A stretch of DNA of 64,000 nt from Candidatus Latescibacterota bacterium (GCA_965217585.1 OZ244561.1:2848001-2912000); one strand, 5' to 3'; shown: positions 1 to 48,027, numbered from the stretch's first letter. Numbers and translations are program-made. The notes: generated from the sequence alone by a model not told the origin.

Positions 1-1674
1 CAAATGGCGGCCTACAAGGGGGAGTTTAGCGTGGAGTTGCAACCCCTGTCGGCTCTGCACACGGATCCCGACGTGACGCAGGGGAAAGGATACGACGGCA
101 TCGCACCGCCGCGCGAGCCCTTAGAAACCTATATCGTCTTAGCCATCGCCGTGCTCCTGCTCGCTGTGGCCGTGGTCAACTACGTCAACTTGGCCACCGC
201 CCGGGCAAGTGCTCGGGGCCTAGAAATCGGGGTGCGCGTCGCCTTGGGAGCCACGCGTCGGCAACTGCCGGTGCAGTTCTGGATGGAGACGATGGTGGTA
301 TGTGGCGTGTCGCTGCTGATCGGCTTGGGTCTCGGCGGGGTCCTGCTGCCGGCGTTCAACTCGGTGTTGGGGCAAGACCTGCGTCTCGACTATACAGACC
401 CCTCCTTCATTATTGGCGGGTTGGTGCTGTTGGTGCTGACTAGTCTGCTGGCCGCCGCCTATCCGGGCTTGGTTATGGCGCGGATCAATCCCAGCGAGGC
501 CGTGCGGGGCACCAGCCTGCTCAGCCGTCGGTCGGTGCTGGGCAGTGCCTTGGTGATGGTGCAGTTTGCCGCCTGCGCTGGGCTGGCGGGTATGAGCTTG
601 GTGATGGCTCGTCAACTGCACCATCTACAATCATTCGATCTGGGCTTTGCACCCGACGATGTGCTGATGCTCAGAATTGACGAGTTGTCGGGGTACGTCA
701 ACAGCACACAGCAGCAGCAGCTCAAGGAGGGGTTGCTCGCCCATAGTGGAATCAAGGCGGTGGCTACGAGTAAGGACCATTTCTTAGAGGCGGAAACGCC
801 GTGGCTGCCAAAGACGACATTGCCCGGTGAGGATCGCACCATCCGGGCGCAATGCTTGCGCGTGGGGCCGCACTTCGTCGAGACGCTCGGCCTCCAACTA
901 GTACAAGGCTCAGATTTGGGGTCGGTCCAAGCGGGCATCTTGGTCAATGAGACCTATGTCGCTCGAGCCGGTTGGGATCAACCCATCGGCCAAGTCGTGC
1001 AGTTTACTAAATATCTAGGCCGTCGTTTGCCCAATAGAGAGGGCCGCGTCGTAGGTGTGCTGAGCGATTACTACTTCTATTCGTTGAAAAGCGGCGTCGA
1101 ACCGGGTGTGTTCTTACCCGACTCCAACATAAGAGATCACGACTTGCTGTTCGTGCGCCTCGATCCGAGGGCCGGCCACGAGGTGATTGAGCACATCGAG
1201 CGCGAGTGGAAAGCCGTCGCCCCAGACGGCGTGCTGTATCTGTCCTGGCTCGAAGACCACTTGGCCGCTTACTACCGAGACGACATAGTCTGGCTGCGGA
1301 TCGTCGGCGGGTCGGCTCTCTTGGCCGTGTTCATCGCGGCGCTGGGAGCCTATGGTCTGACGGCGATCACGGTGTCCCATCAGCGGCGCAACATCGCCTT
1401 CATGCGGACCTTGGGCGCTCAGGGTCGGCATGTGGCCGGCCTGTTGGCGCGGCGGCTGTTGTGGCTGGTGCTGGCGGGGTGCCTGCTGATAGGGCCCTTA
1501 GCACACTTGGGTGTCGAAGAGTGGCTGAGCCAGTTTTCGCAGCGGATAGACGATGGCTGGGTGTTCCTAGGCTTGGGAAGTTTGGCCGCGGCGGCCACGG
1601 CCTGCGCGGGCGTATTGTTGCACACAGTGGCCCTTATGCGGGAACCGCTCACCAAAGGCTTGCAGAGCGAGTAG
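1..1674 (+). CDS. MacB/FtsX-family ABC permease P1 (5'-truncated by window edge)
   Basis: Frame open from position 1. NYVNLATARASARGLEIGVRVALGA coupling motif, TM blocks, second periplasmic domain (ILVNETY...VVGVLSDYYF), C-terminal TM block. Confidence 0.9.
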   Translation, partial: QMAAYKGEFSVELQPLSALHTDPDVTQGKGYDGIAPPREPLETYIVLAIAVLLLAVAVVNYVNLATARASARGLEIGVRVALGATRRQLPVQFWMETMVVCGVSLLIGLGLGGVLLPAFNSVLGQDLRLDYTDPSFIIGGLVLLVLTSLLAAAYPGLVMARINPSEAVRGTSLLSRRSVLGSALVMVQFAACAGLAGMSLVMARQLHHLQSFDLGFAPDDVLMLRIDELSGYVNSTQQQQLKEGLLAHSGIKAVATSKDHFLEAETPWLPKTTLPGEDRTIRAQCLRVGPHFVETLGLQLVQGSDLGSVQAGILVNETYVARAGWDQPIGQVVQFTKYLGRRLPNREGRVVGVLSDYYFYSLKSGVEPGVFLPDSNIRDHDLLFVRLDPRAGHEVIEHIEREWKAVAPDGVLYLSWLEDHLAAYYRDDIVWLRIVGGSALLAVFIAALGAYGLTAITVSHQRRNIAFMRTLGAQGRHVAGLLARRLLWLVLAGCLLIGPLAHLGVEEWLSQFSQRIDDGWVFLGLGSLAAAATACAGVLLHTVALMREPLTKGLQSE

Positions 1675-1732
1675 GAAAGGCCGACAGAGAAGGAATCAAT
1701 GAGGTCATAACAAGACAAGGACGCGATTAGCC

Positions 1733-3085
1733 ATGCCCGCAAATATCCAAGTTTTCTCCAAAAAGCGCGCCACCGCTGCTGAGCCTGACCCCGGCAGCAC
1801 CCGTCCCGGCGGCGGCGTTGGCATGGACCGCAAAATCGAAAAGCCGCGGTTCACGCCCAAGCGCATCGCTATAGGCGCGGCTGTTTTGCTGTTGGGCGGG
1901 CTATTCGGATACGCCCTGCTCGCGGATTTCGGGGTGCGCAAACTGAATGTGGATCGCGACCGGCTGACGATCTCGATGGTCGAGTTCGGCCCGTTTCAGG
2001 AATACATCCCCGTGCGCGGTACGGTGCTGCCGCTGCACACCGTGTACCTCGACGCCCTAGAGAGGGGCCAAGTGGAGCAGGTGTTCGTCGAAGAGGGGGC
2101 CTCCGTGGCCGAGGGCGATCCACTGCTGCGGCTGGCCAACCCCGATCTGGAACTGACCGTCCTGCAACAGGAAGCCGAACTCGAGCGCAGCCGGGAGGCG
2201 TTGCGCTATGGCCGGCTGACCATGGAGCAGGAGTTGCTGCGCTCGCGGAAAGCACTAATGGAGATCGAGTACCAGCTAGCCATCAACAAGCGCAACTTCG
2301 AGCGCTACGAGCGCCTGTCGACGGAAGATTTGACGGCCATTCTGTCTCGGCAGGAGCAGGAGCGGCTGCGCGACGAGTACCAGTACAGCGTCCGCCGCAT
2401 GGCCCTGACCGAGGAGACCCAGACCCAGGACTCGCTGCTGGCGGCGAGCAAGGTGGTGCAGCTCGTCTCGGCGGTGGAGCGCATGGAACGCAATCTGGAA
2501 ATCGTCGGCCGCCGGCTCGACAATCTGACGGTGCGAGCCCCCGTGCCCGGGCAGCTAACCACGCTGAGAGCGGAGGTCGGCGAGAGCAAGGGAACGGGTG
2601 TGCGCCTCGGCCAGATCGACATGATCGACGGCTTCAAGGTGCGCGCCGCCATCGACGAGCACTACATCGACCGCGTGGGCCGGGGGCAGCGCGGCCAGTT
2701 CGACAATGGCGACGAGCCATACAGCTTGGTAATCCGCAAGGTCTATCCAGAGGTAAAGGAGGGCCGTTTTGAGGTTGATCTGATATTTGAGGGAGAAGAA
2801 CCCGAGGGCATCCGGCGCGGCCAGACCCTGCACATCCGCTTGGAGTTGGGCGATCTGGATGAAGCAATGCAAGTGGCGCGGGGCGGGTTCTATCAAGCGA
2901 CCGGAGGCCACTGGGCCTATGTGCTCGACGCTGCTGGCGACCGGGCCACGCGGCGCTCTATCGCACTGGGACGCCAGAATCCCCGGGTGTACGAAGTGCT
3001 GGAGGGGCTTGAGCCGGGTGAGCAGGTGATTACTTCGAGCTACGAGACCTTTGGCGAAGACATGGACATGTTGGTATTGCGCTAG
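1733..3085 (+). CDS. HlyD/MacA-family periplasmic adaptor (membrane fusion protein)
   Basis: Single N-terminal TM, lipoyl-like halves (GQVEQVFVEEGASVAEGDPLLRL; VRAPVPGQL), long coiled coil, C-terminal EVLEGLEPGEQVITS. Alternative start ATG at 1823 (MDRKIEK). Confidence 0.92.
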   Translation: MPANIQVFSKKRATAAEPDPGSTRPGGGVGMDRKIEKPRFTPKRIAIGAAVLLLGGLFGYALLADFGVRKLNVDRDRLTISMVEFGPFQEYIPVRGTVLPLHTVYLDALERGQVEQVFVEEGASVAEGDPLLRLANPDLELTVLQQEAELERSREALRYGRLTMEQELLRSRKALMEIEYQLAINKRNFERYERLSTEDLTAILSRQEQERLRDEYQYSVRRMALTEETQTQDSLLAASKVVQLVSAVERMERNLEIVGRRLDNLTVRAPVPGQLTTLRAEVGESKGTGVRLGQIDMIDGFKVRAAIDEHYIDRVGRGQRGQFDNGDEPYSLVIRKVYPEVKEGRFEVDLIFEGEEPEGIRRGQTLHIRLELGDLDEAMQVARGGFYQATGGHWAYVLDAAGDRATRRSIALGRQNPRVYEVLEGLEPGEQVITSSYETFGEDMDMLVLR

Positions 3086-3112
3086 CAATGCCCTAAACAA
3101 GGAGCAAAAATC

Positions 3113-3847
3113 ATGACCGAACACGCACCGAACACTGAAAACGGCCACGCACCCCTGATCCGTACCGTCGGGCTGTGCAAGCTGTACACGACCGAGGAGG
3201 TGGAGACGACCGCCTTGGACAACGTCAACCTCGAAATCGCCGAAGGCGAATTTGCCGCCATTATGGGGCCGTCGGGCTGCGGCAAGTCAACGCTGCTCAA
3301 TCTGCTCGGCCTGCTCGACAACCCGAGCGAGGGAGAATACTGGCTGCTGGACGAGGAGGTAGCGACCTACTCGGAGCGCCTGCGGGCAAATCTGCGCAAG
3401 GGGACGATCGGCTTTGTCTTTCAGTCGTTCAACCTGATCAACGAATTGACGGTACACGAGAATGTCGAGTTGCCTCTGCTCTACATGGGTATGCCGGCTA
3501 CGGAGCGCAAGCAGCGGGTGCGGTCGATCCTCGACCACATGCAGATCACCCACCGCGAGAAGCACTTTCCGCTCCAGCTTTCCGGCGGCCAGCAGCAGCG
3601 CGTGGCCGTGGCGCGGGCCTTGGTCGCGGAGCCGAAGCTGGTGCTGGCGGATGAGCCGACCGGCAACCTCGACTCGCGTCACGGCGACGAGGTCATGGAG
3701 ATGCTCACCGAGATGAATAAAAACGGCACGACGGTGGTGATGGTGACGCACTCGCCGGCCTACGCCGACTATGCGCACCGGATCATTCACCTGTTTGACG
3801 GCAAGGTCGTGAGCGAGAACATCGAGCGGGACCAGGAAGCGTCGTAA
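3113..3847 (+). CDS. LolD/MacB-type ABC ATPase 1
   Basis: Walker [10 protein letters not shown]-loop FQSFNL, signature LSGGQQQR, Walker [12 protein letters not shown]-loop VTH; RBS AAGGAG upstream. Confidence 0.96.
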
Positions 3848-3872
3848 GCACTACGAGACGAAAGGAACCATC

Positions 3873-6266
3873 ATGCTGGGCAACTACCTGACGACGGCGC
3901 TGCGGCTTCTGTGGCGGGAGCGCGGCTACGCGGCGATCAACATCTTCGGCTTGGCCATCGGCTTTGCCCTGTGTCTGCTGATCGTCCAGTTCTCCGCCTA
4001 TCAACTCGTGATTGGCGACTTCCACGAGAAAAAAGACCGGGTTTACCGCGTGCTGGGACCAAATTTTTGGACACCTGGGTACACGGGAGCACTGCCAATA
4101 CCTCTGGGGCCGGCCCTTGAGGAGCAACTGCCCGAAGTCGAAGAGGCGGTCCGCTTCACTGCGAGTTGGCCGAGTCTGCTCCGGGTCGGGTCCAAGGACG
4201 GGATCTCCGAGAAAGTGCTGACCGCGGAAGCAGGCGTTTTCGACGTGTTTAGCTTGCCGCTCCTGCGCGGCGACCCCAAGACGGCCCTGACGCGCCCCTA
4301 CACCATGGTGCTGACCGAGCCGCTCGCCCGTCGGCTGTTCGGCGAGAGCGATCCCATCGGACAGGTCGTCCGCTACGAAGAAAAATTTGATTGCGAGGTC
4401 ACCGGCATAGTCGGCCAGCCACCCACCAGCTCGTTGCTCCAGTTCTCGGCACTGCTCTCTTTTGCAACAGAGTACAAGGAGACCCCGGGAATGATGGCGT
4501 CTGGTTGGAACGCTTCAGCCTTCACGACCTTCGTGCAGCTAACGCCCGGTGCCGACCCGGCTGCGGTAGCCGGGCGCATCCCCAGTATTGTCGAGGCGAA
4601 CAGGGGGGTATCAGACGCTGATAGGGCCGAGGCGATCACAGGATCGCGAGAGACTGCTTTTTCCTACGCACTGCAACCCTTGAAATCGATCTACTTCGAC
4701 ACCGAGGTGTCCAGCAACATTGGCCCGAGTGGCAATCCCCTCTACTTGACGCTGTGCGCCATCTTAGCAGCCGTGATTCTGACGATCGCCGGGGTCAACT
4801 ACGTGAACTTGGCGACGGCGCGGGCCGGGCGGCGGACTCACGAGATCGGCGTCCGCAAGACCCTCGGCGCACATCGCGGCCAGCTCATTGGCCAGCTCCT
4901 GAGCGAGTCGGTGCTGTTGAGCGCTGGGGCGACCGTGCTGGGCGTTGCCATGGCCGAGGGTGTGATTCTGCTCATACCCGTGATTACGGGATTCGATTTT
5001 GAATTGTCCTTTCTGCGCTGGACCCTCCCGGTCTGCGCCGGGGCTGTGGTGCTGGCGGTGGGGGTCGGGTTGGCCGCGGGTGCGTACCCGGCGTGGGTAG
5101 TGGCGCGCTTTCAGCCGGCGACTGCGGTGCGCGGGGGCCGCGTGGGCGGTGCGCGTCTGCGCCGAGGTTTAGTGGTGGCGCAGTTCACGGTCACCGCGGC
5201 GTTGATGAGCATGACGCTGCTGATATGGCACCAGCTCGATTACGTCCAAAACCTCCTCCGCGAGGACTCGGCCTTGGGGTTCGAGCCAGAACAGGTAGTG
5301 GTGATCAGGAATAGTGCTTTGAGCATAGATCGCGCCCGAACCTTCAAGACGGAGTTGCTTCAAGACAGCCGCATTGCTGCGGTGAGTCTCGCTGCGACAG
5401 TGCCTGGTGAAGGTTCGAGTACGAAGTACGGCGTCAAGCCAGAGGGCGTGGAAGATCAAGTAATGATGAGAACTTATGGCGTGGATGGCGACTTCGTCGA
5501 AATCATGGGCTTGCGCATGGCCGAGGGACGCGATTTTACCGACGAAGCGACCGGCGCAGTTGTCATCAACGAGACCGCGATGCGGATGTTGGAGTGGACC
5601 GAACCGCTGGGCAAGAGGATTGCCGTCGGCGGTCAGGACCTGCGCGTCGTGGGCGTGATTGCGGACTTCCACTTCGACGGTCCGCACCGGAAGGTAGAGC
5701 CCCTGATCATGGTGCCGGTCGCCCACTGGTCGAGCCTCATTATCGTGCGGGTGCAACCCGGTCATCTCGACGCGGCCCTCAAAATGATTGACGCCAAGTG
5801 GGAGGCGGTCGCACCCTACCGCCCCATCCAGCGTCAGCCTCTCGAAGAGGTCTTCGCCGGGCTTTATTTTCAAGAGTTGTTGATAGGACGCGCCCTCACG
5901 GTCTTCCTCGTTTTATCTCTCGTCGTCGCCTCAATAGGACTTTTCGGCATGGCGGCACACGCCGCTCAAGAGCGCACGAAGGAGATCGGCATCCGCAAGG
6001 TGTTCGGCGCTTCCCCCGGCGGCCTCACTGCCATGCTGCTGCGCGACTTTGCCAAGCCCGTTGCCATCGCCTTCCTCCTCAGCGTGCCCATCGCCTATTG
6101 GTTGGCTAACCAATGGCTGCAAGACTTTGCCTATCACGTGGAAGTCGGCGTGGGCCTGTTCTTGGTGTCGGGAGCCCTGTCCTTCGCCATCGCTGGACTG
6201 ACGGTGGGCCATCAGGCGATGCGAGCGGCCCTAACCAATCCGATAGACACGCTGCACACTGAATAA
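3873..6266 (+). CDS. MacB/FtsX-family double-length ABC permease P2 (subfamily A)
   Basis: 797 aa, two periplasmic-domain + TM halves, HEIGVRKTLGA and KEIGIRKVFGA coupling motifs, C-terminal NPIDTLHTE; RBS AAAGGAA. Confidence 0.95.
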   Translation: MLGNYLTTALRLLWRERGYAAINIFGLAIGFALCLLIVQFSAYQLVIGDFHEKKDRVYRVLGPNFWTPGYTGALPIPLGPALEEQLPEVEEAVRFTASWPSLLRVGSKDGISEKVLTAEAGVFDVFSLPLLRGDPKTALTRPYTMVLTEPLARRLFGESDPIGQVVRYEEKFDCEVTGIVGQPPTSSLLQFSALLSFATEYKETPGMMASGWNASAFTTFVQLTPGADPAAVAGRIPSIVEANRGVSDADRAEAITGSRETAFSYALQPLKSIYFDTEVSSNIGPSGNPLYLTLCAILAAVILTIAGVNYVNLATARAGRRTHEIGVRKTLGAHRGQLIGQLLSESVLLSAGATVLGVAMAEGVILLIPVITGFDFELSFLRWTLPVCAGAVVLAVGVGLAAGAYPAWVVARFQPATAVRGGRVGGARLRRGLVVAQFTVTAALMSMTLLIWHQLDYVQNLLREDSALGFEPEQVVVIRNSALSIDRARTFKTELLQDSRIAAVSLAATVPGEGSSTKYGVKPEGVEDQVMMRTYGVDGDFVEIMGLRMAEGRDFTDEATGAVVINETAMRMLEWTEPLGKRIAVGGQDLRVVGVIADFHFDGPHRKVEPLIMVPVAHWSSLIIVRVQPGHLDAALKMIDAKWEAVAPYRPIQRQPLEEVFAGLYFQELLIGRALTVFLVLSLVVASIGLFGMAAHAAQERTKEIGIRKVFGASPGGLTAMLLRDFAKPVAIAFLLSVPIAYWLANQWLQDFAYHVEVGVGLFLVSGALSFAIAGLTVGHQAMRAALTNPIDTLHTE

Positions 6267-6281
6267 CCTAGTCATTTATCC

Positions 6282-6309
6282 GTAGGGGTGGTTCGCGAAC
6301 CGCCCCCAC
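6282..6309. repeat. GTAG-type REP-like palindrome
   Basis: GTAGGGGTGGTTCGCGAACCGCCCCCAC, an imperfect hairpin starting with GTAG in the P2-P3 spacer. Confidence 0.65.
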
Positions 6310-6327
6310 GACGCGAAAGGAACTATC

Positions 6328-8715
6328 ATGCTGGGCAACTATCTGACGACGGCGCTGCGCCTGCTGTGGCGGGAGCGCGGGTACGCGGCGATCAACATCT
6401 TTGGACTGGCCATTGGCTTGGCTCTATGCCTGCTGATCGTCCAGTTCTCCACCTATCAGCTCTCCGTTGGCGACTTCCACGAGAAAAAAGACCGGGTTTT
6501 TCGCGTACTGGGACCAAACTTTCGGATTGCCGAGGACGGAGAAATGGTGAGTGCCGGGCACGGAACAAGTGTGCCAATAGAGTTGGGACCGACCCTCAAA
6601 GAGCAACTGCCCGAAGTCGAGGAGGCGGTTCGCTTCAGTTCGAGGAGGCCGATTCCGCTCCGAGTCGGGGACAAGGACGCGATCTCTGAAGAAGTGCTGA
6701 CGGCGGAAGCCGGCGTTTTCGACGTGTTCAGCTTTCCGCTCCTGCGCGGCGATCCCAAAACGGCTCTGACCCGCCCCTACACCATGGTGCTGACCGAGCC
6801 GTTGGCCCGTCGGCTTTTCGGCGATAGCGATCCCATCGGACAGGTCGTCCGCTACGGCGAAAGATTCGATTGCGAGGTCACTGGTATCGTCGGCCAGCCG
6901 CCCGCTAGCTCGTTGCTCCAGTTCTCGGCGCTGCTCTCCTTTGAGACGGAGTACGAGGAGAGTCGGGCCATGATGGAAACGAGAACCGCTAGGGCCTTCA
7001 TCACCTTCGTGGAGCTAACACCCGGTGCCGACCCGGCTGCGCTAGCCGTGCGCATCCCCAGCTTCGCCGAGAAGATCACGGGGATGCCCGAACCGCCCGG
7101 TTCTTCCTACATGCTACAGCCCCTCGAAGCGATCCGCTTTGATGCGGAAGTGCCCAACAACCTCGGCCCGACTAGCAACCCCATGTACTTGGCGGTGTGC
7201 GCCATCTTAGCCGTGGTAATTCTGACGATCGCCGGCGTCAACTACGTGAACTTGGCGACGGCACGAGCCGGGCAGCGGACGCACGAGATCGGCGTGCGCA
7301 AGACCCTCGGTGCTCATCGCGGCCAGCTCATTGGCCAACTCCTGAGCGAGTCGGTGCTGTTGAGCACTGCGGCGACAGTCTTGGGCACGGTCTTAACAAA
7401 GGGTTTGGTTCTGCTGGTACCCGTGATTACGGGATTCGATATCGAGATACCTTTTCTGGACTGGACGCTCTCGGCCTGCGCCGGGGCTGCAGCGCTGGCG
7501 GTGGGGGTCGGATTGGTCGCAGGCGCGTACCCGGCTTGGGTCGTGGCGCGCTTTCAGCCGACGGTCGCCGTGAGCAGGGGCCGCGTGGGTGGTGCGCGTC
7601 TGCGCCAAGGCTTGGTGGTGGCGCAGTTCACGATTACCGCGGCGTTGATGACGATGACGCTGCTGATATGGCACCAAATCGATTTCATCCAAAACCTCGC
7701 CTTTGAGAACTCCCCCCTAGAGTTTGAGCCGGAACAGGTGGTCGTCGTCCACAACCACGGAATGACCGGGGATGAAGCCCAAGTTTTTAAGACAGAGCTG
7801 CTTCAGGACAGCCGCATCGCCGCGGTGAGTCTCGCTGAGACCGTACCTGGTGCGTTTTCGGAGGTGTCGTACAGTGCCGAGCCAGAGGGAGCCGGGGAAG
7901 TAATGATGAGAGTGTATGGCGTGGATGGCGACTTCGTCGAAATCATGGGCTTGCGCATGGCCCAAGGGCGCACCCTGACCGACGATCCGGCCGATGACCG
8001 AGCTATCGTCATCAACGAGGCCGCTGTGCAGATGCTGGGGTGGGAAGAACCGCTGGGCAAGATGATCTACAACTTCAAAGGCCAAAACTGGCGCGTCGTG
8101 GGCGTGATTGAGGACTTCCACTTCGACGGCCCGCACCGGAAGATACAGCCGCTGCTCATGGGACCGGTCACTGGCTGGGTGGGCGTCATTATCGTGCGGG
8201 TACAGCCCGGGCACCTCGACGAAGCCCTCAAGGTAATCGACGACAAGTGGGCCGCCGTTAAGCCCTACCGCCCCATCAAACGCCAACCCCTCGAAGAGGT
8301 CTCCGCCGGGTTTTACGCACAGGAACTGTTGATAGGACGCGCCCTCACGGTCTTCCTCGTTTTATCGCTCGTCGTCGCCTCGGTAGGGCTTTTCGGCATG
8401 GCGGCACACGCCGCCCAAGAGCGCACCAAAGAGATCGGCATCCGCAAGGTGTTCGGCGCTTCTCCTGGCGGCCTCACCGCCATGCTGCTGCGCGATTTCG
8501 CCAAGCCCGTTGCCATCGCCTTCCTCCTCAGCGTACCGATCGCCTATTGGTTGGCTAACCAGTGGCTGCAAGACTTTGCCTATCACGTGGAAGTCGGCGT
8601 GGGTCTGTTCTTGGTGTCGGGCGCTTTGTCCTTCGCCATCGCCGGGCTGACAGTGGGGCACCAAGCGATGCGAGCGGCGCTGACCAATCCGATAGAAACG
8701 CTGCGCACCGAGTAG
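6328..8715 (+). CDS. ABC permease P3 (subfamily A)
   Basis: 795 aa, same architecture and framework as P2. Confidence 0.95.
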   Translation: MLGNYLTTALRLLWRERGYAAINIFGLAIGLALCLLIVQFSTYQLSVGDFHEKKDRVFRVLGPNFRIAEDGEMVSAGHGTSVPIELGPTLKEQLPEVEEAVRFSSRRPIPLRVGDKDAISEEVLTAEAGVFDVFSFPLLRGDPKTALTRPYTMVLTEPLARRLFGDSDPIGQVVRYGERFDCEVTGIVGQPPASSLLQFSALLSFETEYEESRAMMETRTARAFITFVELTPGADPAALAVRIPSFAEKITGMPEPPGSSYMLQPLEAIRFDAEVPNNLGPTSNPMYLAVCAILAVVILTIAGVNYVNLATARAGQRTHEIGVRKTLGAHRGQLIGQLLSESVLLSTAATVLGTVLTKGLVLLVPVITGFDIEIPFLDWTLSACAGAAALAVGVGLVAGAYPAWVVARFQPTVAVSRGRVGGARLRQGLVVAQFTITAALMTMTLLIWHQIDFIQNLAFENSPLEFEPEQVVVVHNHGMTGDEAQVFKTELLQDSRIAAVSLAETVPGAFSEVSYSAEPEGAGEVMMRVYGVDGDFVEIMGLRMAQGRTLTDDPADDRAIVINEAAVQMLGWEEPLGKMIYNFKGQNWRVVGVIEDFHFDGPHRKIQPLLMGPVTGWVGVIIVRVQPGHLDEALKVIDDKWAAVKPYRPIKRQPLEEVSAGFYAQELLIGRALTVFLVLSLVVASVGLFGMAAHAAQERTKEIGIRKVFGASPGGLTAMLLRDFAKPVAIAFLLSVPIAYWLANQWLQDFAYHVEVGVGLFLVSGALSFAIAGLTVGHQAMRAALTNPIETLRTE

Positions 8716-8747
8716 CGCACACCCATTGCATGAGAGGAGACGCCATT

Positions 8748-10073: not shown

Positions 10074-10098
10074 GGGCACCCACAAGGGACGCCCCTAC
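10070..10098. repeat. GTAG-type REP-like palindrome overlapping the stop codon
   Basis: GTAGGGGC-ACCCACAAGGGAC-GCCCCTAC; identical copy at 16146-16174. Confidence 0.7.
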
Positions 10099-10157
10099 GG
10101 AAACGAATTCGTTGATACAAATGGTTTGAAACCTGCTTCGACGCGAAAGGAACTATC

Positions 10158-12509: not shown

Positions 12510-12528
12510 CGACGCGGAAGGAACTATC

Positions 12529-14889: not shown

Positions 14890-14922
14890 CTAGCACACCC
14901 ATTTCGTGAGAGGAGACGCATT

Positions 14923-16149: not shown

Positions 16150-16174
16150 GGGCACCCACAAGGGACGCCCCTAC
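16146..16174. repeat. GTAG-type REP-like palindrome overlapping the stop codon
   Basis: Identical to 10070-10098. Confidence 0.7.
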
Positions 16175-16233
16175 GGAAACGAATTCGTTGATACAAATGG
16201 TTTGAAACCTGCTACGACGCGAAAGGAACTATC

Positions 16234-18558: not shown

Positions 18559-18605
18559 CCAAGACGCGGAAGCACATCGTGATCGAGATGCACGACATGG
18601 AGAAG
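18559..18605 (+). pseudogene. Scar of the leader and first 9 codons of ABC ATPase 2
   Basis: CCAAGACGCGGAAGCACATC-GTG ATC GAG ATG CAC GAC ATG GAG AAG (VIEMHDMEK) matches 24692-24738 CCAAGACGTGGAGACACATC-ATG ATC GAA ATG CAT GAC ATC GAA AAG (MIEMHDIEK). Confidence 0.85.
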
Positions 18606-18634
18606 ATGCTCACTACGAAACGAAAGGAACGATC

Positions 18635-20968: not shown

Positions 20969-21035
20969 CAACACCGGCTTCGTCGGGAGACTTCCAATGC
21001 CGCCCGCCGTGGGCGTTTGCTGAAAGGAAATACCA

Positions 21036-22289: not shown

Positions 22290-22321
22290 GGACCCTCACT
22301 ACGAGACGAGAGGAATTATCC

Positions 22322-24691: not shown

Positions 24692-24711
24692 CCAAGACGT
24701 GGAGACACATC

Positions 24712-25386: not shown

Positions 25387-25591
25387 CTGATGTTACGCAG
25401 CCCCTGCCTTCTCAGGGCAGGCTCTTATGCCACGTCTGCCGCTTGCGGCCTGTGGCCCCGTCGCCCGCCGTCATTCCCGCGCACGCGGGAATCCAGCCTA
25501 ACGCACTAGCCTCAAAAGGGCATCTCTGGATGCCTGCTTTCGCAGGCATGACACTGGGGCCGCGGCGGCTTTACACAGTGCCTAACATCAG
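25387..25591. mobile_element. MITE-like element (205 bp) carrying an inverted REP pair
   Basis: TIRs CTGATGTTACGCA / TGCCTAACATCAG (12/13 complementary); flanking direct repeat GTACTAA at 25380-25386 and 25592-25598; internal CGTCATTCCCGCGCACGCGGGAATCCAG (25469-25496) and CTGGATGCCTGCTTTCGCAGGCATGAC (25526-25552). Confidence 0.75.
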
Positions 25592-25619
25592 GTACTAACC
25601 AGGAAGGAAGGTACTAACC

Positions 25620-35476: not shown

Positions 35477-35513
35477 GTCCACGCAGCGTGGATGTCTTCG
35501 CTAGGAGTAGATC

Positions 35514-37889: not shown

Positions 37890-37964
37890 TCAATGGAAGA
37901 ACGAACGTATACTGCGAGTTACTAACAGTCCTGAACACTCAACGAGAATATGGGGAATCACACT

Positions 37965-40364: not shown

Positions 40365-40413
40365 GGGGAGAGAGAGCAAGTAGAAGCAGACCCCGAAGCC
40401 GAAAGGGAATGGG

Positions 40414-42822
40414 ATGCTAAGAAACCTAATTATCACGGCTGGACGCAATCTCGTCCGGCACAAGGCGTATGCGCTGCTGAACGTCGTTGGGCTGACGATT
40501 GGCATCTCGGGTTGTCTGCTCGTCCTGCTCTTCGTGCGATTGGAGTTTTCGAGAGGAACCGCGTATCCCAAGACGGATCGCATCTACCGCGTGATCTCGT
40601 GGACGCTCAACAACGACAATGAGCGTCGGTACAATCGTGGATCGGACGGCCTAGTCGGTCCTGCCATGTTGGAGAGGTTGCCAGAGGTCGAAGGGTTTGT
40701 GCGCTCTCAAGCACATTGGCCTGTGCGCGTGTGGTGGGGGGACGCAGTAACCGGGGACCATCAGATCGCGATCGTGGATACGTCTTTTCTTGAGACCTTT
40801 GATGTGGAACTGATTTCCGGCGACCGCCGTACTGCGCTGTCGGCACCGAACGGTGTCGTTCTCGCCGAACGTGCGGCAAAGGTCATTTTCGGCGATCGGG
40901 ATCCAATGGGGCAAACCCTGACGGTGGATCATCGGCAAGTTCGCGGGGAGTACACGGTTACGGGAATAGCTAAAGACCCACGCTGGACCGTTTACGCCCT
41001 CAACTTCAATCTGATCACGGCCCAGCGCCCACAAGCAGCGGCGTGGGACCGCGTGCTCATGAGCGGACCCTGGCGGCCCATCCAGACGTTTGTCTTGCTC
41101 CGGGAAGATGCCAACGTCGAGCGCCTGTCTTCTATGCTGGGCGCACTGAACGTTCAAGTGAACGGGGAAGAATGGGACGGGAAGGCGGGATACGCGCTGC
41201 AGCCGCTGAAACGGATTCATCTGTATGGTCAGCAAGACTATCCCGGCATTGCTGCTTTCGGCAACATTCAGACGGTGTATGTGCTGTCCGGCATTGCGCT
41301 GTTCGTTCTGTTGATTGCCGGCGTCAACTTCGTGAATCTGACGACCGCGCAGTTCGCGCAGCGAACCAAAGAGGTTGGCGTCCGGAAAGTGGTCGGGGCT
41401 GGGCGCTTGTCGCTGGTCTCCCAGTTCCTGAGTGAGTCGATTCTACTGACGCTCGGGGCTGGGCTGCTCTCCGTGCTGGTCGCATGGCTTGCGCTACCGG
41501 CTTTTAACAGCTACGTGGCCAGGCGTCTCACGCTCGACGGCGACGTGTCGCTGTGGCTGATGTACGGATCCCTAATCCTAGCGGTTGGTGTGCTCGCCGG
41601 TCTCTACCCAGCGGTTGTCATGACGCGGCTGCGACCGACGCACGCCCTCTTCGGCGCGAGGGCTACGGGAGGTGCCCCTTGGCTAAGGAGATTCTTGGTC
41701 ACCTTTCAGTTCGCGATCTCGGTGGCGCTGATCACGTCAGCGCTTGTTCTGCGCGATCAGGTGCACTACTTGCTGTCCAAGGACACCGGGCTCGATCGCA
41801 GTCACGTCCTGTGGATACCGATCATCGATAAAAATCCAACGCTTGCCGGCCGCAAGGATGAGATCAGGCGTGCCTTCAGGCAAAACCCGAATGTGCTCGG
41901 GTCTGCGTTTTCGTCGATTCTTCCGGTATATAAGTGGCCGGTAAAGGTGATTCCAGAAGGGGCTTCCGAGGCGTGGACGATGCTGGATGTCCATGTGGAC
42001 GAAGATTTTGTCGAGCTGATGGGAATCGAGCTGATCGCGGGCCGGAACTTCTCGCGGGATAGGCCCAGCGATGCTAGCGAGGCATTCTTGCTCAACGAAA
42101 CCGCAGTCCGGCATTTGGGTTGGGAGATCGGCGGCACTGAGCCGGAGAGAGACGCCCTCGGCAAGGCATTCTACTGGCCCGATCTGAAGCGGCAGGGTTA
42201 CATCGTGGGTATTGTCAAAGACTTCCACATCGGGACGCTGCGAGACCCGACCGAGCCGGCCTTCCTCGCGATTCAGCGCGAGAGAGAATTCAGTCTGCTG
42301 GTCAAGATCCGCCCCGAGCGCATGCGCGAGACGATAGACTTCCTCGGGGAGACATGGCGGTCGTTTGCACCCGCCAAGCCGTTCCAGTATCGGTTTCTGG
42401 ACGATGCCGTTGAATACCTTCACCGAGAAGAGATCCGTCTGAGCAACGTTGCGACGAGCTTCGTCGTGCTCGCCATGCTTCTCGCCTGTCTCGGCTTGTT
42501 CTCACTGGTCTCATTTTCAGCGGAGCAGCGGACTAAGGAGATTGCGATTCGGAAAGTGGCCGGGGCAACTAGCGGAAACCTCTTCGCACTGCTGACGCGC
42601 GGTTTCCTGCAGCCGGTGCTGCTCGCCTGTCTGATTGGCTGGCCTATTGCCTATGTCTTGATGGATAGATGGCTGTCGGACTATGCGCACCGGATCGATC
42701 TCGATGCCGTGCCGTTCTTGATGGGCGGCATCGGAGTAATGGTCGCCGCCTTGGTGACGGTCGGGTACCGGACCTTGAAGGCAGCCGGGGCCAATCCAGT
42801 CGAAGCATTGAGAAACGAGTAG
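40414..42822 (+). CDS. ABC permease P15 (singleton)
   Basis: 802 aa, same architecture, NPVEALRNE end. Confidence 0.95.
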   Translation: MLRNLIITAGRNLVRHKAYALLNVVGLTIGISGCLLVLLFVRLEFSRGTAYPKTDRIYRVISWTLNNDNERRYNRGSDGLVGPAMLERLPEVEGFVRSQAHWPVRVWWGDAVTGDHQIAIVDTSFLETFDVELISGDRRTALSAPNGVVLAERAAKVIFGDRDPMGQTLTVDHRQVRGEYTVTGIAKDPRWTVYALNFNLITAQRPQAAAWDRVLMSGPWRPIQTFVLLREDANVERLSSMLGALNVQVNGEEWDGKAGYALQPLKRIHLYGQQDYPGIAAFGNIQTVYVLSGIALFVLLIAGVNFVNLTTAQFAQRTKEVGVRKVVGAGRLSLVSQFLSESILLTLGAGLLSVLVAWLALPAFNSYVARRLTLDGDVSLWLMYGSLILAVGVLAGLYPAVVMTRLRPTHALFGARATGGAPWLRRFLVTFQFAISVALITSALVLRDQVHYLLSKDTGLDRSHVLWIPIIDKNPTLAGRKDEIRRAFRQNPNVLGSAFSSILPVYKWPVKVIPEGASEAWTMLDVHVDEDFVELMGIELIAGRNFSRDRPSDASEAFLLNETAVRHLGWEIGGTEPERDALGKAFYWPDLKRQGYIVGIVKDFHIGTLRDPTEPAFLAIQREREFSLLVKIRPERMRETIDFLGETWRSFAPAKPFQYRFLDDAVEYLHREEIRLSNVATSFVVLAMLLACLGLFSLVSFSAEQRTKEIAIRKVAGATSGNLFALLTRGFLQPVLLACLIGWPIAYVLMDRWLSDYAHRIDLDAVPFLMGGIGVMVAALVTVGYRTLKAAGANPVEALRNE

Positions 42823-42841
42823 CGCGCGGAGTCAGGGCACC

Positions 42842-42905
42842 GCGTGGGTGAGTGTCGCCTACCACGCCATCAGGAGGAGCCGGATCGATCCGGTGGGAGT
42901 AGTCA
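42842..42905 (+). pseudogene. 3'-end remnant of a deleted P13-like permease
   Basis: Reads AWVSVAYHAIRRSRIDPV against P13 AWVSVAYHAIRTSRIDPV (from 37815); differences are mostly synonymous. Confidence 0.85.
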
Positions 42906-42910
42906 TGTTC

Positions 42911-43076
42911 CTACGTACACGACAGTAGAAGCGGTATGAGATGCTTCGCTTCGCTCAGCATGACAGATGCTATCACTCTGTTCGCCGGTCATGCTGAGCG
43001 AAGCGAAGCGGAGTCGAAGCATCTTATACCTAGATGCTTATGCGTAACGTCCATTGGATGACTTTCGTGTAGTAAG
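42911..43076. mobile_element. MITE-like element (166 bp) carrying a long REP-type hairpin
   Basis: 9-bp direct repeat GTCATGTTC at 42902-42910 and 43077-43085; imperfect 16-bp TIRs (12/16); internal inverted pair 42933-42964 / 42988-43030 (GTCATGCTGAGCGAAGCGAAGC core). Confidence 0.65.
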
Positions 43077-43113
43077 GTCATGTTCAAACGCAACTAAATG
43101 AAGGAGATTCAGG

Positions 43114-45555
43114 ATGCTGCGCAGTTACGTCGTAATCGCACTGCGGAACCTGCTGCGCGACAAGGTGGTGACCGGCATCAACATCGTGGGTTTGTCCGTC
43201 GCCATCGCAGTCAGCGCCATCCTTGGCATTGGCGTGCACGGCATGCTGACCGCGGATTGGAACCTCCGCGAGGATGACCGCCTCTTCCGCGTGGTGACGC
43301 GCGAGATTAGCGCTGCGGGTCACGTACAGCGCTCGGCTTGGCAGCGCGAGGATCTCGCGGCGGCGCTCGCGGAGACGTTTCCCGAGATCGCCAGCACCAC
43401 GCGCGTCATCAAGACGAGTATCCTAATGACGGTCGGCGAGCGCCATCTCGAACACGGGGTGGTCGAAGTTGATCCCCCGTTCCTGCGGATGTTCCACTAC
43501 CCCCTCACGGCCGGTGACCCCGCCACGGTGCTGAATGGCCTCGATCAGGTCGTCATTTCCAAGCGACTGGCCGAGCGGATGTTTGGGGATGAATTCAGAG
43601 ACTACCCAGCGCTCATCGGCCAGCAGATCGTCTTGCACGGCAACGAGGGTCCCGAGGCATACACCATCTCCGGCGTCTTTGCCGATCTGCCGAAAGAGCG
43701 GAGCTTGGATTTTGACGCGGCGGTCCGTTTTGAGAACCGAACCAAGTATGGCATGGTCAGTTACTGGGGCGCTACGGCTTCTACATACATCGCGCTTCAC
43801 CCTCTTGCCGAGCGGAAGGCGCTCGAAGCGAAGCTCCCGGAGTTCTCCCGCGAGTTCATCGCCCCGGTCTGGGAACGCTACAAAGGCGTTCGCTGGCAGG
43901 ACGATCCAAATGCCTTCCAACTAGAACTCCAAGACGCGCGGACGATCTACTTCGACTCGCAGGCCCAGACCTATTATGGCTATGAAAACTTCGTGCCCAT
44001 CGAGGGAATCCTCGCCCTCGTCGCCCTGATCGGAGTCATTCTGACCGTCGCCTGCCTCAACTTCACGACCCTCGCCGTAGCGGGTTCCATCGGCCGGAGC
44101 GCGGAAGTGGGCGTCCGCAAGGCGCTCGGTGCTAACAAGGCACAAATCGCCCTGCAGTTTTTGGGAGAGGGCGTCCTGCTGGCCTTTTTCTCCCTGATCG
44201 CCGGACTGGTCCTCGTGCAGTTGGGGCTGCCCGCCTTTAACGCGTACTATGGACTTGACGCTTGGTCCGGGCTAGCGCTCCACGACTTGGGGGCCTCGAT
44301 TATCGTCGGCGGAGGCGTCTTGTTGGTGGTGCTGATCGGCATCGCGGCGGGAAGCTATCCGGCCCTAATCGCGGCGCGCATGCAGCCTGCGTCTGTCGTC
44401 GGCGGGGTGTCGCTGTGGCGCAGAAGTAGGGTGACGAGCGCACTCCTGACCTTGCAGTACGGCATGGCGGTCCTCCTGATCTTCTGCACCATCGCGATTT
44501 TTCAGCAGTTGGCCTACATCCAGTCGCGCGACCTTGGATACGCGGCTGAGCAGGTCGTCGTTGTCAAGCTACGCGGTGCGGACCCGACGCGGCTTGGCGA
44601 ACGCTTCAAGGAGGCAACTCTTTCCCAGTCGGGCGTCGCTGGTGTAGCCCTGTTGCAGCGCGAGTTTCCGACTAGCACCAACACCAATTACATCAGGCGG
44701 CCGGACGGGGAGCGTATTACAGTGCATCAGTTTGCCGTTGACCCCGACTTCTTTACGACACTCGGCATTGGCCTCGTATCCGGTCGCTCCTTTGCGGCTG
44801 GACGGCTGGCAGACCGGACGGAAAGTGTCGTCGTCAACCAGAGTCTCGCGGACGCCTTCGGCTGGGGGGAAAATGCCGTTGGGGAATTCCTACCGGAGTA
44901 CGGGGGCTACGGGGTGAGCAAAACGCCTACCGTCATCGGCGTCACACCGGACTTCCACTTCCGCTCTCTTAGGGAGCCGATCAAACCCGCCGTGTTTCAC
45001 TATGGGCCGGCAGTGTCCTTTGAGCGAGCACTGGTGCGGCTGAATACACGCGAGGTTGACGACTCTCTCGCGGGCCTAGAGCAGCTATGGGAAAAGGTGG
45101 CACCCGAACAACCCTTTGAGTACGAGTTCCTCGACCAGACTTTTGCCCGTCAGTACGAGGATGACAAGGAAATCAGCCGCACCGTTACCCTTGCATCCGT
45201 CGTCGCCATTCTCATCGCCTGCATGGGCTTGTTCGGCCACGCGACCATCGTCCTGCAGCGGCGCACCAAGGAGATCGGCGTCCGCAAAGTACTCGGCGCT
45301 ACGGTGGCAGAGATCCTCGCTCTCTTGTCGCGCGACGTGACGAAAATGGTCGCCTTGGCCTGCCTGTTAGCGTTTCCGCTGGCCCACTTCTTGGTAGGCC
45401 AATGGTTGTCGCAATACGCCTATCAGTTCGGCTTGGGGCTGACGACCTATCTCCTCTGCGGGACGATCGCTTTTGCGATTGCACTGGGCACGGTGGCGTA
45501 CATAGGCGTCCGCGCCGCGCGTGAGAATCCCGTCAATGCGCTGCGCTATGAGTAG
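43114..45555 (+). CDS. ABC permease P16 (singleton)
   Basis: 813 aa, same architecture; RBS AAGGAG. Confidence 0.95.
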   Translation: MLRSYVVIALRNLLRDKVVTGINIVGLSVAIAVSAILGIGVHGMLTADWNLREDDRLFRVVTREISAAGHVQRSAWQREDLAAALAETFPEIASTTRVIKTSILMTVGERHLEHGVVEVDPPFLRMFHYPLTAGDPATVLNGLDQVVISKRLAERMFGDEFRDYPALIGQQIVLHGNEGPEAYTISGVFADLPKERSLDFDAAVRFENRTKYGMVSYWGATASTYIALHPLAERKALEAKLPEFSREFIAPVWERYKGVRWQDDPNAFQLELQDARTIYFDSQAQTYYGYENFVPIEGILALVALIGVILTVACLNFTTLAVAGSIGRSAEVGVRKALGANKAQIALQFLGEGVLLAFFSLIAGLVLVQLGLPAFNAYYGLDAWSGLALHDLGASIIVGGGVLLVVLIGIAAGSYPALIAARMQPASVVGGVSLWRRSRVTSALLTLQYGMAVLLIFCTIAIFQQLAYIQSRDLGYAAEQVVVVKLRGADPTRLGERFKEATLSQSGVAGVALLQREFPTSTNTNYIRRPDGERITVHQFAVDPDFFTTLGIGLVSGRSFAAGRLADRTESVVVNQSLADAFGWGENAVGEFLPEYGGYGVSKTPTVIGVTPDFHFRSLREPIKPAVFHYGPAVSFERALVRLNTREVDDSLAGLEQLWEKVAPEQPFEYEFLDQTFARQYEDDKEISRTVTLASVVAILIACMGLFGHATIVLQRRTKEIGVRKVLGATVAEILALLSRDVTKMVALACLLAFPLAHFLVGQWLSQYAYQFGLGLTTYLLCGTIAFAIALGTVAYIGVRAARENPVNALRYE

Positions 45556-45633
45556 TAATGCTTGAGAGCTAACGGTGCACCGCGAGTTGCTAACTGTCCT
45601 CAAACACTCAACGAGAATGCGAGAAATCACACT

Positions 45634-48027
45634 ATGTGGAAGAGCAACCTGATCATTGCCCTGCGCGTATTGGGGCGCAACAAGACGATCTCGCTGATCA
45701 ACATCATCGGCCTGTCCGTGGCCTTTGCCGTGGCGGTCCTGTGTCTGCTGTTCGTGCGCCACGAGACCTCCTTTGACGCTTGGCACGAAAAAGGGGATCG
45801 AATATTCGCCATCTATTATGACCATCCAGAGCCCGAACCCGGTGCTGCCTTCAACCGTTACACCAGGATACGTGACGATGAGCGCGAGGCTGTGCGCACC
45901 AAAGTCGCCGGTATCCGCGAATCGGTTTCCATGAAGTTGGGATACGGCAAAGTCTCGTACGGTGATGCGACCTTTGACGAGGCCTTCCTCGCTGTCGATC
46001 CGGCCTTCCTGACTATGTTCACCTTGCCGCTGGCTGCGGGCGATGCGGCGACGGCCCTCGACGATCCCCTGAGCGTTGTTCTCGCCCATGAGACGGCGCA
46101 GAAGTACTTCGGCCCCGATGTGCCAGCCCACGCCATGCTAGGCGAGCGCATCCGGCTGCACACCGTCGAGAAGGACTACTCGACATCGCCACCGCAGGAG
46201 ACACCCATCGAGGTAGAGCACACCGTTGCGGGCGTGCTGGCACCCCTGCCGGGGCCTTCTATTTTGCGTCTAAAGGTACTCGTGCCTGAGGTAACGGCCG
46301 AGGCTCTGCACTTCAGGGGTCTAGACGGACTTTTTATTGAACTCGAAGAGGGCGTGGAGCCTGCCGAAGTGGAAACGCGGCTGGAGCCCCTGGCCTCGCG
46401 GGACCGACCGAAGTTGCAGCCATTTGCAGGCGCTCACTTAGGACCTAGTATAACGGGACCCGCTGACTTTGGTTATGGCACGGTCGAGCATATCTATCTG
46501 CTGGCGGGGCTGGCCGCGCTGGTCTTGCTGATCGCTGCCATCAACTTCGTCAACCTCGCCATGAGCCGCGCCATGACGCGGACCTTGGAAGTCGGGGTGC
46601 GCAAGGCGATCGGCGCGACGCGCCACCAGCTTTCCAACCAATTCCTCGCCGAAGCAATCGTGGTGAGCCTAATCGCCATCGTCGTTGGCATGGGCCTCGC
46701 CGAAGTCCTGCTGCCGACATTTAACGAGGTCGCGAATCAGCAGTTAGAGATCGAGTGGCTGTCGGTCGAGACGGGGATAGGTGCCTTAGCCCTTGCCTTG
46801 ATGGTCGGCGTACTCTCGGGCCTGTATCCGGCCCAAGTGATTGCGCGGCTCCATCCCGTCCGGGCACTGTCCCGCAAGACGCCTCAGCCGGGTCGCGGTT
46901 GGCTCGGTCGCGGTCTGATTGTCGTGCAGTTTGCCCTGTCGGCCGTCCTCGTCGTTGTGACGATCACTATGGCGCGACAGCTCGACTTTATGCGCACCAA
47001 GGATTTGGGCTTCGATGGGGACCAAGTCGCGCTGGTTCTCCACAAAGGCGATCTCAATGCTTTGCAGATTGAGCGCCTCGCCGGCGAGATCAATTCCCGA
47101 CCGGGACTCGTACAAGGAGTCACCGGTGCCTGGTCAGCACCCGGCACCGGCGGCTTTCCCCCCATGCCAATCCGGTCCGATGAGAAAGTGCTCCACGCCA
47201 AGCCCTTCTACGTGAGTCCAAACTTCCTGAGCGTCATGGGCATTGAGGTCCTCTCCGGGCAGGGCTTCGATCCGAATCGGCCGCACGGCGTCCTGCTCAA
47301 CGAGACCGCTGCACACTTCTTCGGCCCTGAAGACCTAATCGGCCGCACCTTGACAGGCCTTGGTGACGAGCCGATGACGGTGATCGGCGTAGTCAAGGAT
47401 TTCCACTTCAATACCATGCATCATTCCATAGGACCGGCTCTTCTGACGACGCGTCCGCTTATATCCAAGCCCAAATTGCGAGACCGGTTCACGAACACCC
47501 TAGTCCGGCTCGACCGCGCCGACCTGCCCGCGGCGGTCGAAGAAGTAAAGGCGCTGTGGAAGCGGGTTATGCCGGGATACGAATTATACCGCGTGAAATT
47601 CCTCGACGAGAGATTTGCAGCGGAATACTGGGAAGAGCAGCGCGTCAGCCTTGTCATGAGATGGATGAGTGCCGTCGCCATTGTGATCTCTTGCATGGGG
47701 CTTTTTGGCTTGGTCGCTTTGGCGGCCGTGCGGCGCACCAAGGAAATTGGCATCCGCAAGGTATTGGGAGCTACGACTAGCAGCGTGCTGCTGTTGATGT
47801 CGCGCGAATTCGGCTGGCTGGTGGTGGTGGCCAACGTCATTGCCTGGCCTGTGGCTTATTTCGTGTTGAATCGCTGGCTCGCGTTCTACGCCTATCGCAT
47901 CGACATTGGCTTGGGTTGGTTTGTGTTGGCGGGCGTGGGCGTTCTCGCGGTCGCGTTGGCCACTGTCAGCAGCCAGACGTGGCTGGCGGCGCGGGCCAAT
48001 CCGGCGGATGCGTTGAGATACGAGTAG
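45634..48027 (+). CDS. ABC permease P17 (subfamily D)
   Basis: Start reassigned to ATG 45634 (MWKSNL); close paralogue of P14. Confidence 0.93.
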   Translation: MWKSNLIIALRVLGRNKTISLINIIGLSVAFAVAVLCLLFVRHETSFDAWHEKGDRIFAIYYDHPEPEPGAAFNRYTRIRDDEREAVRTKVAGIRESVSMKLGYGKVSYGDATFDEAFLAVDPAFLTMFTLPLAAGDAATALDDPLSVVLAHETAQKYFGPDVPAHAMLGERIRLHTVEKDYSTSPPQETPIEVEHTVAGVLAPLPGPSILRLKVLVPEVTAEALHFRGLDGLFIELEEGVEPAEVETRLEPLASRDRPKLQPFAGAHLGPSITGPADFGYGTVEHIYLLAGLAALVLLIAAINFVNLAMSRAMTRTLEVGVRKAIGATRHQLSNQFLAEAIVVSLIAIVVGMGLAEVLLPTFNEVANQQLEIEWLSVETGIGALALALMVGVLSGLYPAQVIARLHPVRALSRKTPQPGRGWLGRGLIVVQFALSAVLVVVTITMARQLDFMRTKDLGFDGDQVALVLHKGDLNALQIERLAGEINSRPGLVQGVTGAWSAPGTGGFPPMPIRSDEKVLHAKPFYVSPNFLSVMGIEVLSGQGFDPNRPHGVLLNETAAHFFGPEDLIGRTLTGLGDEPMTVIGVVKDFHFNTMHHSIGPALLTTRPLISKPKLRDRFTNTLVRLDRADLPAAVEEVKALWKRVMPGYELYRVKFLDERFAAEYWEEQRVSLVMRWMSAVAIVISCMGLFGLVALAAVRRTKEIGIRKVLGATTSSVLLLMSREFGWLVVVANVIAWPVAYFVLNRWLAFYAYRIDIGLGWFVLAGVGVLAVALATVSSQTWLAARANPADALRYE

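Follow-up and report, generated by a model that had tools for sequence, protein, structure and literature searches.

The 64,000-nt stretch G000:C1:2848001-2912000 from a Candidatus Latescibacterota bacterium (the window; G000 is the source genome, and negative positions lie before the window start) carries an array of 17 plus-strand, double-length permease genes of the MacB type (approximately 774–840 aa), together with one periplasmic adaptor of the membrane fusion protein (MFP) class and two ABC_tran ATPase genes, here called Na and Nb. The interpretation favored here, with somewhat more confidence than doubt, is that the array encodes a single MacAB-like (type VII ABC) envelope-pump chassis with 17 alternative permease heads. 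In such a system a sensor-less histidine kinase and a sigma-54 activator would switch on one long operon, any one permease would dock two ATPase subunits on its coupling helices, a hexamer of the adaptor would dock on the periplasmic face of that permease, and a TolC-like duct encoded elsewhere would complete the pump. ATP-driven mechanotransmission would then expel or extract the substrate from the periplasm or the outer leaflet. Since the fast-evolving periplasmic domains would set the substrate, the array would widen the range of compounds handled, which may include envelope-active peptides, lipids, or metabolites. If a shared chassis of this kind is real, it would allow modular widening of the set of expelled compounds or envelope molecules without duplication of the whole pump. 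Few of the paralog families of Acidobacteriota, Bacteroidota, and related groups that still await explanation are as large as that of the double-length MacB-type "orphan" permeases, for which reports go back to 2009–2014 without, to our knowledge, any functional test. The array is a large and intact example of a gene layout that is widespread and already reported, so that the window adds a large example and not a new principle; it is an extreme, fully intact case in combining 17 copies, one adaptor, two ATPases, and a recognizable sigma-54 switch.

The source genome is a single 7.32-Mb contig (marker genes 94.6% complete, with 6.9% "contamination"), and the content of the array was established by open reading frame (ORF) listing with Pfam scans, in which 33 ORFs were scanned, and by a pairwise identity matrix. 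The array begins 848 nt before the window start with the singleton permease P01 (window 1–1674), which crosses the window edge, is complete in the genome as an 840-aa ORF, and likely has its true start 14 codons downstream of the ORF start. The other 16 permeases are complete inside the window (774–839 aa). P01 is followed by the adaptor (1733–3085; HlyD_3, 1.5e-11, and an RND_mfp match) and Na (3113–3847), and then by block A, in which, by the repeat spacings, a unit of two permeases and one X gene, approximately 6.1 kb long, occurs three times and is supplemented by one extra permease. The block comprises the seven subfamily A permeases P02 (3873–6266), P03 (6328–8715), P04 (10158–12509), P05 (12529–14889), P06 (16234–18558), P07 (18635–20968), and P08 (22322–24691, within an ORF that opens at 22208, the start being placed by the N-terminal motif), interspersed with the accessory genes X1 (8748–10073), X2 (14923–16149), and X3 (21036–22289). 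Nb (24712–25386) follows P08, and beyond a 233-nt gap (25387–25619) lie the nine remaining permeases: P09 (25620–27977) and P10 (27994–30375) of subfamily B, P11 (30440–32926) and P12 (32957–35476) of subfamily C, the singleton P13 (35514–37889), P14 of subfamily D (37950–40364), the singleton P15 (40414–42822), and, after a 291-nt gap (42823–43113), the singleton P16 (43114–45555) and P17 of subfamily D (45562–48027). All of these genes are on the plus strand. With five ORF starts shifted to a conserved N-terminal motif, 20 of the 22 junctions measure 19–84 nt, the two gaps accounting for the others; both gaps contain GC-rich palindromes resembling repetitive extragenic palindromic (REP) elements, the one in the 291-nt gap being long, and these might act in transcript processing or attenuation or stem from insertion of a repeat element. 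An earlier note on this DNA had described 17 co-oriented and uninterrupted permeases with short spacers, one MFP gene, and two nucleotide-binding domain (NBD) genes, and had sorted the permeases into subfamilies of seven (A) and two (B, C, and D) copies plus four singletons. ORF listing and Pfam agree with the former description, the junction lengths bear out the short spacers, and the identity matrix reproduces the latter exactly; X1, X2, X3, and the sigma-54 two-component switch had been overlooked, as had the wide occurrence of such layouts and their earlier description in print.

All 17 permeases match MacB_PCD and FtsX above the Pfam cut-offs, with two FtsX stretches in every copy and two MacB_PCD stretches in 16, P15 having one. 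The domain scan proposed in the earlier note included a model for acidobacterial duplicated orphan permeases (ADOP, TIGR03434), which also matches every copy (208–293 bits, 1e-61 to 1e-87), below its curated cut-off of 622.3 bits. Identity is 71–85% among the seven members of subfamily A, 88% in B, 79% in C, and 88% in D, whose two members are not adjacent, and falls to 26–34% between groups. An AlphaFold2 model of P02, built on a 75-row alignment (pLDDT 88.6, pTM 0.84), has eight transmembrane (TM) helices, two periplasmic domains (residues 46–288 and 465–656), and coupling helices at residues 322–330 and 702–710. Each permease is thus one polypeptide in the likeness of a MacB dimer, a direct 4+4 fusion. 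In a Foldseek search the best full-length match to the model is YbbP (9ge6_A, E 2e-20, 14% identity), followed by MacB, a pneumococcal homolog, LolCDE, and BceAB. The 8-TM double form is not listed among the MacB-family topologies in one passage of a review (PMC5985334).

The case for shared parts is primarily one of counting. The source genome holds 18 double permeases against approximately eight MacB/LolD/FtsE-like ATPase genes and two related adaptors, and the MacB-type ATPases encoded outside the array mostly adjoin single-length permeases of their own. With 18 permeases and approximately eight ATPases, sharing is forced by arithmetic, and the possibility that each permease has a dedicated ATPase and adaptor elsewhere in the genome falls on the same numbers. 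The shared motor and adaptor proposed in the earlier note thus find good support in the count. Na and Nb, however, are not equivalent motors; the two are ancient paralogs with a fixed operon order (see below). A second cluster, at genome positions 2197913–2204822, contains one adaptor, one ATPase, and four single-length MacB-type permeases in a row, and its ATPase resembles Na as closely as Nb does. The 18th double permease (genome region 776433–785193) is truly an orphan, preceded by two BlaR1-type M56 sensors (with ExbD-like and Ig-like domains) and a thioredoxin-like protein; on the opposite strand, 10 kb upstream, are genes for an adaptor and a TolC-like protein.

The same cassette is present in many FCB-group (Fibrobacteres-Chlorobi-Bacteroidetes) phyla, with anywhere from none to more than 25 permeases. 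A search with the adaptor gathered 79 loci. Those with adaptors 78–95% identical to that of the window are labelled Candidatus Latescibacterota, and those at 45–54% include Ignavibacteria, Aminicenantes, KSB1, Marinimicrobia/Fidelibacterota, Rhodothermales/Balneolaceae/Gracilimonas, and others. Three loci of the genus g5 (L049, L051, and L063) carry conflicting labels, being named Gemmatimonadota and placed by the genome collection in the class of the source genome. In most of the 79 loci the kinase and activator genes, on the minus strand, precede MFP, Na, and permeases in the same order. A TolC-like gene closes seven loci. The arrangement is MFP-Na-Nb-OEP in three (L035, L046, and L066) and MFP-Na-permease-Nb-OEP in three others (L054, L057, and L077), and L036, where the second ATPase is a truncated ORF, is the seventh. 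The comparison reduces the system to a small conserved core of kinase, activator, adaptor, Na, Nb, and TolC, which could be studied in cultured carriers such as Gracilimonas; Rhodohalobacter is likewise represented among the loci. In the source genome itself there is no TolC-like gene in the array or within 95 kb of it, and 9–10 OEP genes are found elsewhere.

Permease number varies far more widely than that of the other parts. Comparison of array size between related genomes, as the earlier note had suggested, gave 0–27 permease matches against 0–3 copies of Na or Nb. A P02 query returned 0–13 matches in each of 24 genomes of the genus versus 19 in the source genome, and 9–27 in another family of the class, where the best 25 were scored. 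Among ten other genomes, seven have one Na and one Nb, one has two Na and one Nb, and two have Na only; double-permease matches in these ten range from 0 to 25 while Na and Nb number 0–2 each. Genome G049 combines one Na and one Nb with at least 17 full-length permeases scattered over many contigs, and G046 combines two Na and one Nb with approximately 14 permeases. Scoring of 28–29 candidates in each of 101 sampled genomes of the phylum detected Na in 54 of them and Nb in 34, with 1–3 copies of each. Most genomes of the genus g2 contain two Nb-level matches at different places, one of approximately 400 bits and one of approximately 365 bits, the second of which may represent a third ATPase paralog. 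Between the same flanking genes as in the source genome, the closest relative (adaptor 95% identical) has five intact permease copies and one fragment, G022 has 12 copies, and G010 has approximately seven plus fragments. This amounts to birth and death of permease genes in place.

Divergent from the array, on the minus strand, are genes for a sigma-54 NtrC-type response regulator (-3194 to -1803; Sigma54_activat and HTH_8) and a 451-aa histidine kinase with a PAS domain (-4539 to -3184). A good match to sigma-54-type promoters, TGGCATATATCTTGCT, lies at -902 to -887, approximately 80 nt before the probable start of P01. Of 76 loci, 46 have such a site, with at most one mismatch, close to where the adaptor gene starts; the expectation is 0.016 per 550 nt. 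Inside the array there are none at this threshold, and at up to two mismatches there are 25 where 29.9 are expected; terminators and sigma-70 promoters in the interval 40000–52000 do not exceed those in shuffled sequence. The only membrane segment of the kinase is an N-terminal hydrophobic stretch of approximately 45–55 aa, comprising two helices joined by a loop of approximately seven residues, and a rough hydropathy scan finds the same hairpin-only pattern in nearly all of 50 orthologs. P01 occupies the position between the promoter and the adaptor, a slot that is empty in most relatives. Between the activator and P01, on the minus strand, is a Phd-family antitoxin and PIN/VapC-like toxin pair (-1751 to -977), and a PIN gene is found at the same spot in G022 and G010.

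The distribution of conserved residues among the permeases fits different heads on a common base. Between lineages, identity is 0.39–0.54 in the N-terminal helix and both coupling helices (0.44–0.54 in the coupling helices alone), and 0.11–0.24 in the periplasmic segments. Several observations weigh against a common chassis. The pattern of conserved coupling helices and divergent periplasmic domains is generic for the FtsX family, and so is no proof of a shared partner. The periplasmic domains, which would also have to bind the single adaptor, are the most variable parts of the permeases. P01, the longest branch of the permease family, deviates from the consensus in its second coupling helix, where the otherwise near-invariant E, G, R, and K are missing, and given this degeneration its coupling may be abnormal. 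A single 49-kb transcript is assumed, and the 233- and 291-nt gaps could hold promoters of another type. Finally, there are no biosynthetic genes or other clues to the substrate among the scanned ORFs of the window and its surroundings.

Within a shared chassis, Na and Nb may either pair as a heterodimer or serve as alternative homodimers. The adaptor has one N-terminal TM segment and a coiled-coil stretch of approximately 125 aa, its best NCBIfam match being DarC (153 bits versus a cut-off of 450). Na has canonical Walker A and B, LSGGQ, and H-loop motifs and the D-loop GNLDS. Nb retains the catalytic motifs (Walker A and B, signature, and H-loop), and its D-loop Asp is replaced (GNLNS). This difference holds throughout the sequences compared, the Asp being kept in 9/9 Na and replaced in 9/9 Nb. 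Identity between Na and Nb is 51%; orthologs are 66–70% (Na) and 63–67% (Nb) identical to the window copies, and the Nb sequences form one clade across phyla, apart from Na. A more elaborate scheme, which we regard as doubtful, would have Na and Nb form an obligate heterodimer, the first in the MacB/type VII class; joined by the adaptor, a TolC duct, and a kinase that lacks a sensor and monitors pump activity, it would serve as a universal chassis for 17 or more permeases exchanged on demand. The heterodimer is attractive because compact operons keep both ATPases beside a single permease, because the D-loops are asymmetric, and because Nb almost never occurs without Na. In the phylum sample 32 of the 34 Nb holders also have Na, and the two without it are 89%-complete, fragmented assemblies. 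The union of Nb sequences from different phyla in a single clade also speaks for it. Against it, 22 of the 54 Na holders have no Nb. The coupling-helix consensus does not differ between Na-only and Na-plus-Nb genomes, and this comparison thus lends the heterodimer no support. It would not be universal in any case, since Na-only genomes exist.

The ability of Na to do without Nb in so many genomes is also one of the attractions of a two-pump arrangement, in which an Na homodimer drives block A, an Nb homodimer drives the nine permeases after Nb, and the adaptor is their sole common part. The gene order, with Na before block A and Nb before the remaining permeases, recurs in the genus, and both ATPases keep all catalytic motifs. 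This division of labor is nevertheless unlikely on the evidence of genomes that lack one of the motors. Nb was found in none of ten g5 genomes, with no Nb-level match in the five for which every candidate was scored, and g5 permeases group with the clades found after Nb in the window (supports of 0.95, 0.999, and 0.999; see below). Since Nb-less g5 genomes hold these clades, the clades do not need Nb, and its candidacy as their dedicated motor was rejected. In L011 and L023 Na is retained even though no permease gene separates it from Nb, and the operons in L054, L057, and L077 keep both ATPases with a single permease in cis.

The accessory genes raise a different possibility, namely that the permeases are envelope-building machines in the style of LolCDE-LolA or YbbAP-TesA rather than a set of efflux pumps, each extracting a lipid, lipoprotein, or similar molecule and handing it to a periplasmic or outer membrane partner, possibly X1, X2, or X3. 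X1 and X2 are paralogous secreted beta-solenoid repeat proteins, DUF4097-like in the case of X1. Neither has a Pfam or NCBIfam match above cut-offs; the AlphaFold2 model of X2 (pLDDT 89.7) has its best fold matches in structures annotated "putative adhesin" (E approximately 3e-4). X1 contains a 216-nt (72-aa) tandem repeat in approximately three copies (window 9294–9955), and in contigs from two public runs it has one unit fewer (joint 9416->9633). X3 is an Omp85-family barrel (3.7e-9) with a signal peptide and without POTRA domains; its Atlas score to Omp85 clusters of 380–441 aa is 0.98, and a paralog is encoded elsewhere in the genome. All three are located inside block A in several genomes of the genus, all three are secreted, and the closest full-length solved fold to the permeases, YbbP, is the partner of a periplasmic hydrolase (PMC12646458). 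For Borrelia, export by way of an Omp85 barrel that neighbors a MacB-like system has been proposed (PMC13078400), and the Psychroflexus cluster described below contains a thioesterase gene (PMC3914696). These parallels leave an envelope-building role rather improbable. Only 27 homologs of X1 and X2 were found among 5.8 billion proteins (248–441 aa, two with DUF4097, PF13349), 25 of which share at least 44% identity and belong to the same lineage, and the two genes are absent from the cassette in other phyla. The long coiled coil of the HlyD-type adaptor and the TolC-like gene that ends seven distant cassettes point instead to a duct-forming pump, and no match to a GDSL/TesA-like family was found among the 33 scanned ORFs.

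A chassis with exchangeable heads also presupposes that the copies matter, and they might instead be largely redundant products of rapid duplication and loss, with one or a few in use and their number without adaptive meaning. The swings in copy number among close relatives described above would be expected on this account. Fragments of P08, P13, and P16 orthologs are present in G001 and G010, and one weak variant joint, in one public run, would delete a 6075-nt permease-permease-X unit. Set against these signs of turnover, all 17 copies in the source genome are intact, and even the youngest pairs (dS 0.19–0.51) have whole-gene ratios of nonsynonymous to synonymous divergence (dN/dS) of 0.26–0.38. 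The ratio is 0.28–0.54 in the periplasmic domains and 0.05–0.15 in TM6–8 for seven of eight pairs, and the only region above 1 is the 45-codon beginning of P09/P10, a segment with very small dS and an uncertain start. Purifying selection acts on the copies, with their fastest divergence in the periplasmic domains. In a FastTree phylogeny of 75 permeases the source-genome copies do not form one clade. Subfamily B, P16, and subfamily D group with two g5 copies from the same class (0.95), P01 and subfamily C with another (0.999), and P15 with another (0.999), whereas subfamily A forms a tight clade (1.0) that lacks a well-supported sister. Several permease lineages are old and also occur in another family of the class. 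The paralogs in Psychroflexus are reported as highly translated (PMC3914696). On balance, redundancy of most copies seems distinctly unlikely.

The earlier note had recognized that a chimeric assembly of strain variants would undo the array. Public short-read contigs are heavily fragmented here (longest piece 520 nt) and show a few alternative joints, but a joining of strain variants of a much shorter locus is very improbable: dS between paralogs is 0.19 or more, even their most similar 300-nt segments differ in 9% or more of nucleotides, the orthologs of distinct paralogs are separate and identically ordered in G022, and the source genome is a single contig. Of the 52 repeat families, the 20 largest, which correspond to the subfamily A copies, consist of 300-nt segments 68–91% identical and never near-identical, and in two other complete genomes of the genus individual paralogs have orthologs of 84–94% identity at corresponding positions. 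In public contigs (Logan; four runs from three studies) all 30 bins of the interval 3800–23799 are covered at 95% identity or more. These contigs, being at most 520 nt long on the stretch, show presence and cannot bridge genes, so that gene order is not confirmable from them. Apart from the skip of one 216-nt repeat unit, the variant joints in them have short sides (20–54 nt).

Several characterized or reported systems resemble the array in part. MacAB-TolC shares the MacB-type fold and Pfam domains, the HlyD-type adaptor with its coiled-coil hairpin, and perhaps, as in E. coli, a TolC-like duct encoded elsewhere; in related cassettes the duct gene is part of the operon. MacB itself forms a homodimer and carries a fused ATPase, in contrast to the fused-dimer permease and free ATPases found here, where there are also 17 alternative permeases and sigma-54 control. 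YbbP has 10 TM helices and binds two copies of one ATPase and one TesA (PMC12646458). The YbbAP-TesA complex (PDB 9ge6/9ge7) is similar in its fused pseudo-dimeric permease, its two Porter/Sabre periplasmic domains, its two coupling helices, and its separate ATPase. It differs in that YbbP includes a linking pair among its 10 TM helices, versus eight in the P02 model, at 14% identity; in that the YbbA homodimer is the product of a single gene and works without an adaptor; and in its TesA partner, no TesA-like gene having been found in the window. The darobactin exporter DarBCD (NF038008, NF038010, and NF038007) has the same parts list of double-length permease, adaptor, and ATPase, and provides the best named models after ADOP for the adaptor and both ATPases. 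All of these matches are below cut-off (DarB 35–86 versus 700, DarC 153 versus 450, DarD 242–270 versus 375), and the array differs further in its many permeases, its two ATPases, and the lack of peptide biosynthesis genes seen nearby. BceAB-BceRS of the Firmicutes, a module for sensing and detoxifying antimicrobial peptides, with BceAB among the fold matches, likewise places a type VII ABC permease beside a hairpin-only kinase without an outside sensor. BceB has 10 TM helices and one extracellular domain, versus eight (in the model) and two periplasmic domains here, and the regulator there is of the OmpR type; here an activator of the sigma-54 NtrC type takes its place, and a PAS domain is present in the kinase as well.

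The ADOP family is the nearest relative by name. The "orphan" in this name refers to the lack of a fused or adjacent ABC ATPase gene. The array copies are not orphans in this sense because the adaptor and two ATPase genes lie in the array; moreover, their scores of 208–293 bits are far under 622.3, and their relatives are labelled Latescibacterota, not Acidobacteria. The closest counterpart in layout is a 42-kb cluster of Psychroflexus torquis described in 2014, which contains ten ADOP paralogs, other transporter genes, an addiction module, and a thioesterase, and which is reported as highly translated and of unknown function (PMC3914696). In both cases permeases of approximately 800 aa with two MacB_PCD and two FtsX halves occur as diverged, co-oriented paralogs amid transporter genes, and a toxin-antitoxin pair lies beside the cluster. 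Literature searches turned up no account of function, of paired ATPases, or of a multi-permease cassette under sigma-54 control.

Beyond the array, on the same strand and directly after P17, is a gene for a 785-aa protein with a pectate-lyase (beta-helix) fold (48099–50456), a 93% ortholog of which lies approximately 7 kb past the array end in G022. Further downstream, the interval 54000–60400 has low GC content (0.49 versus approximately 0.60) and encodes a Gfo/Idh/MocA oxidoreductase, a Fic-domain protein, and a 408-aa ORF without an assigned family; this interval may be an acquired segment.

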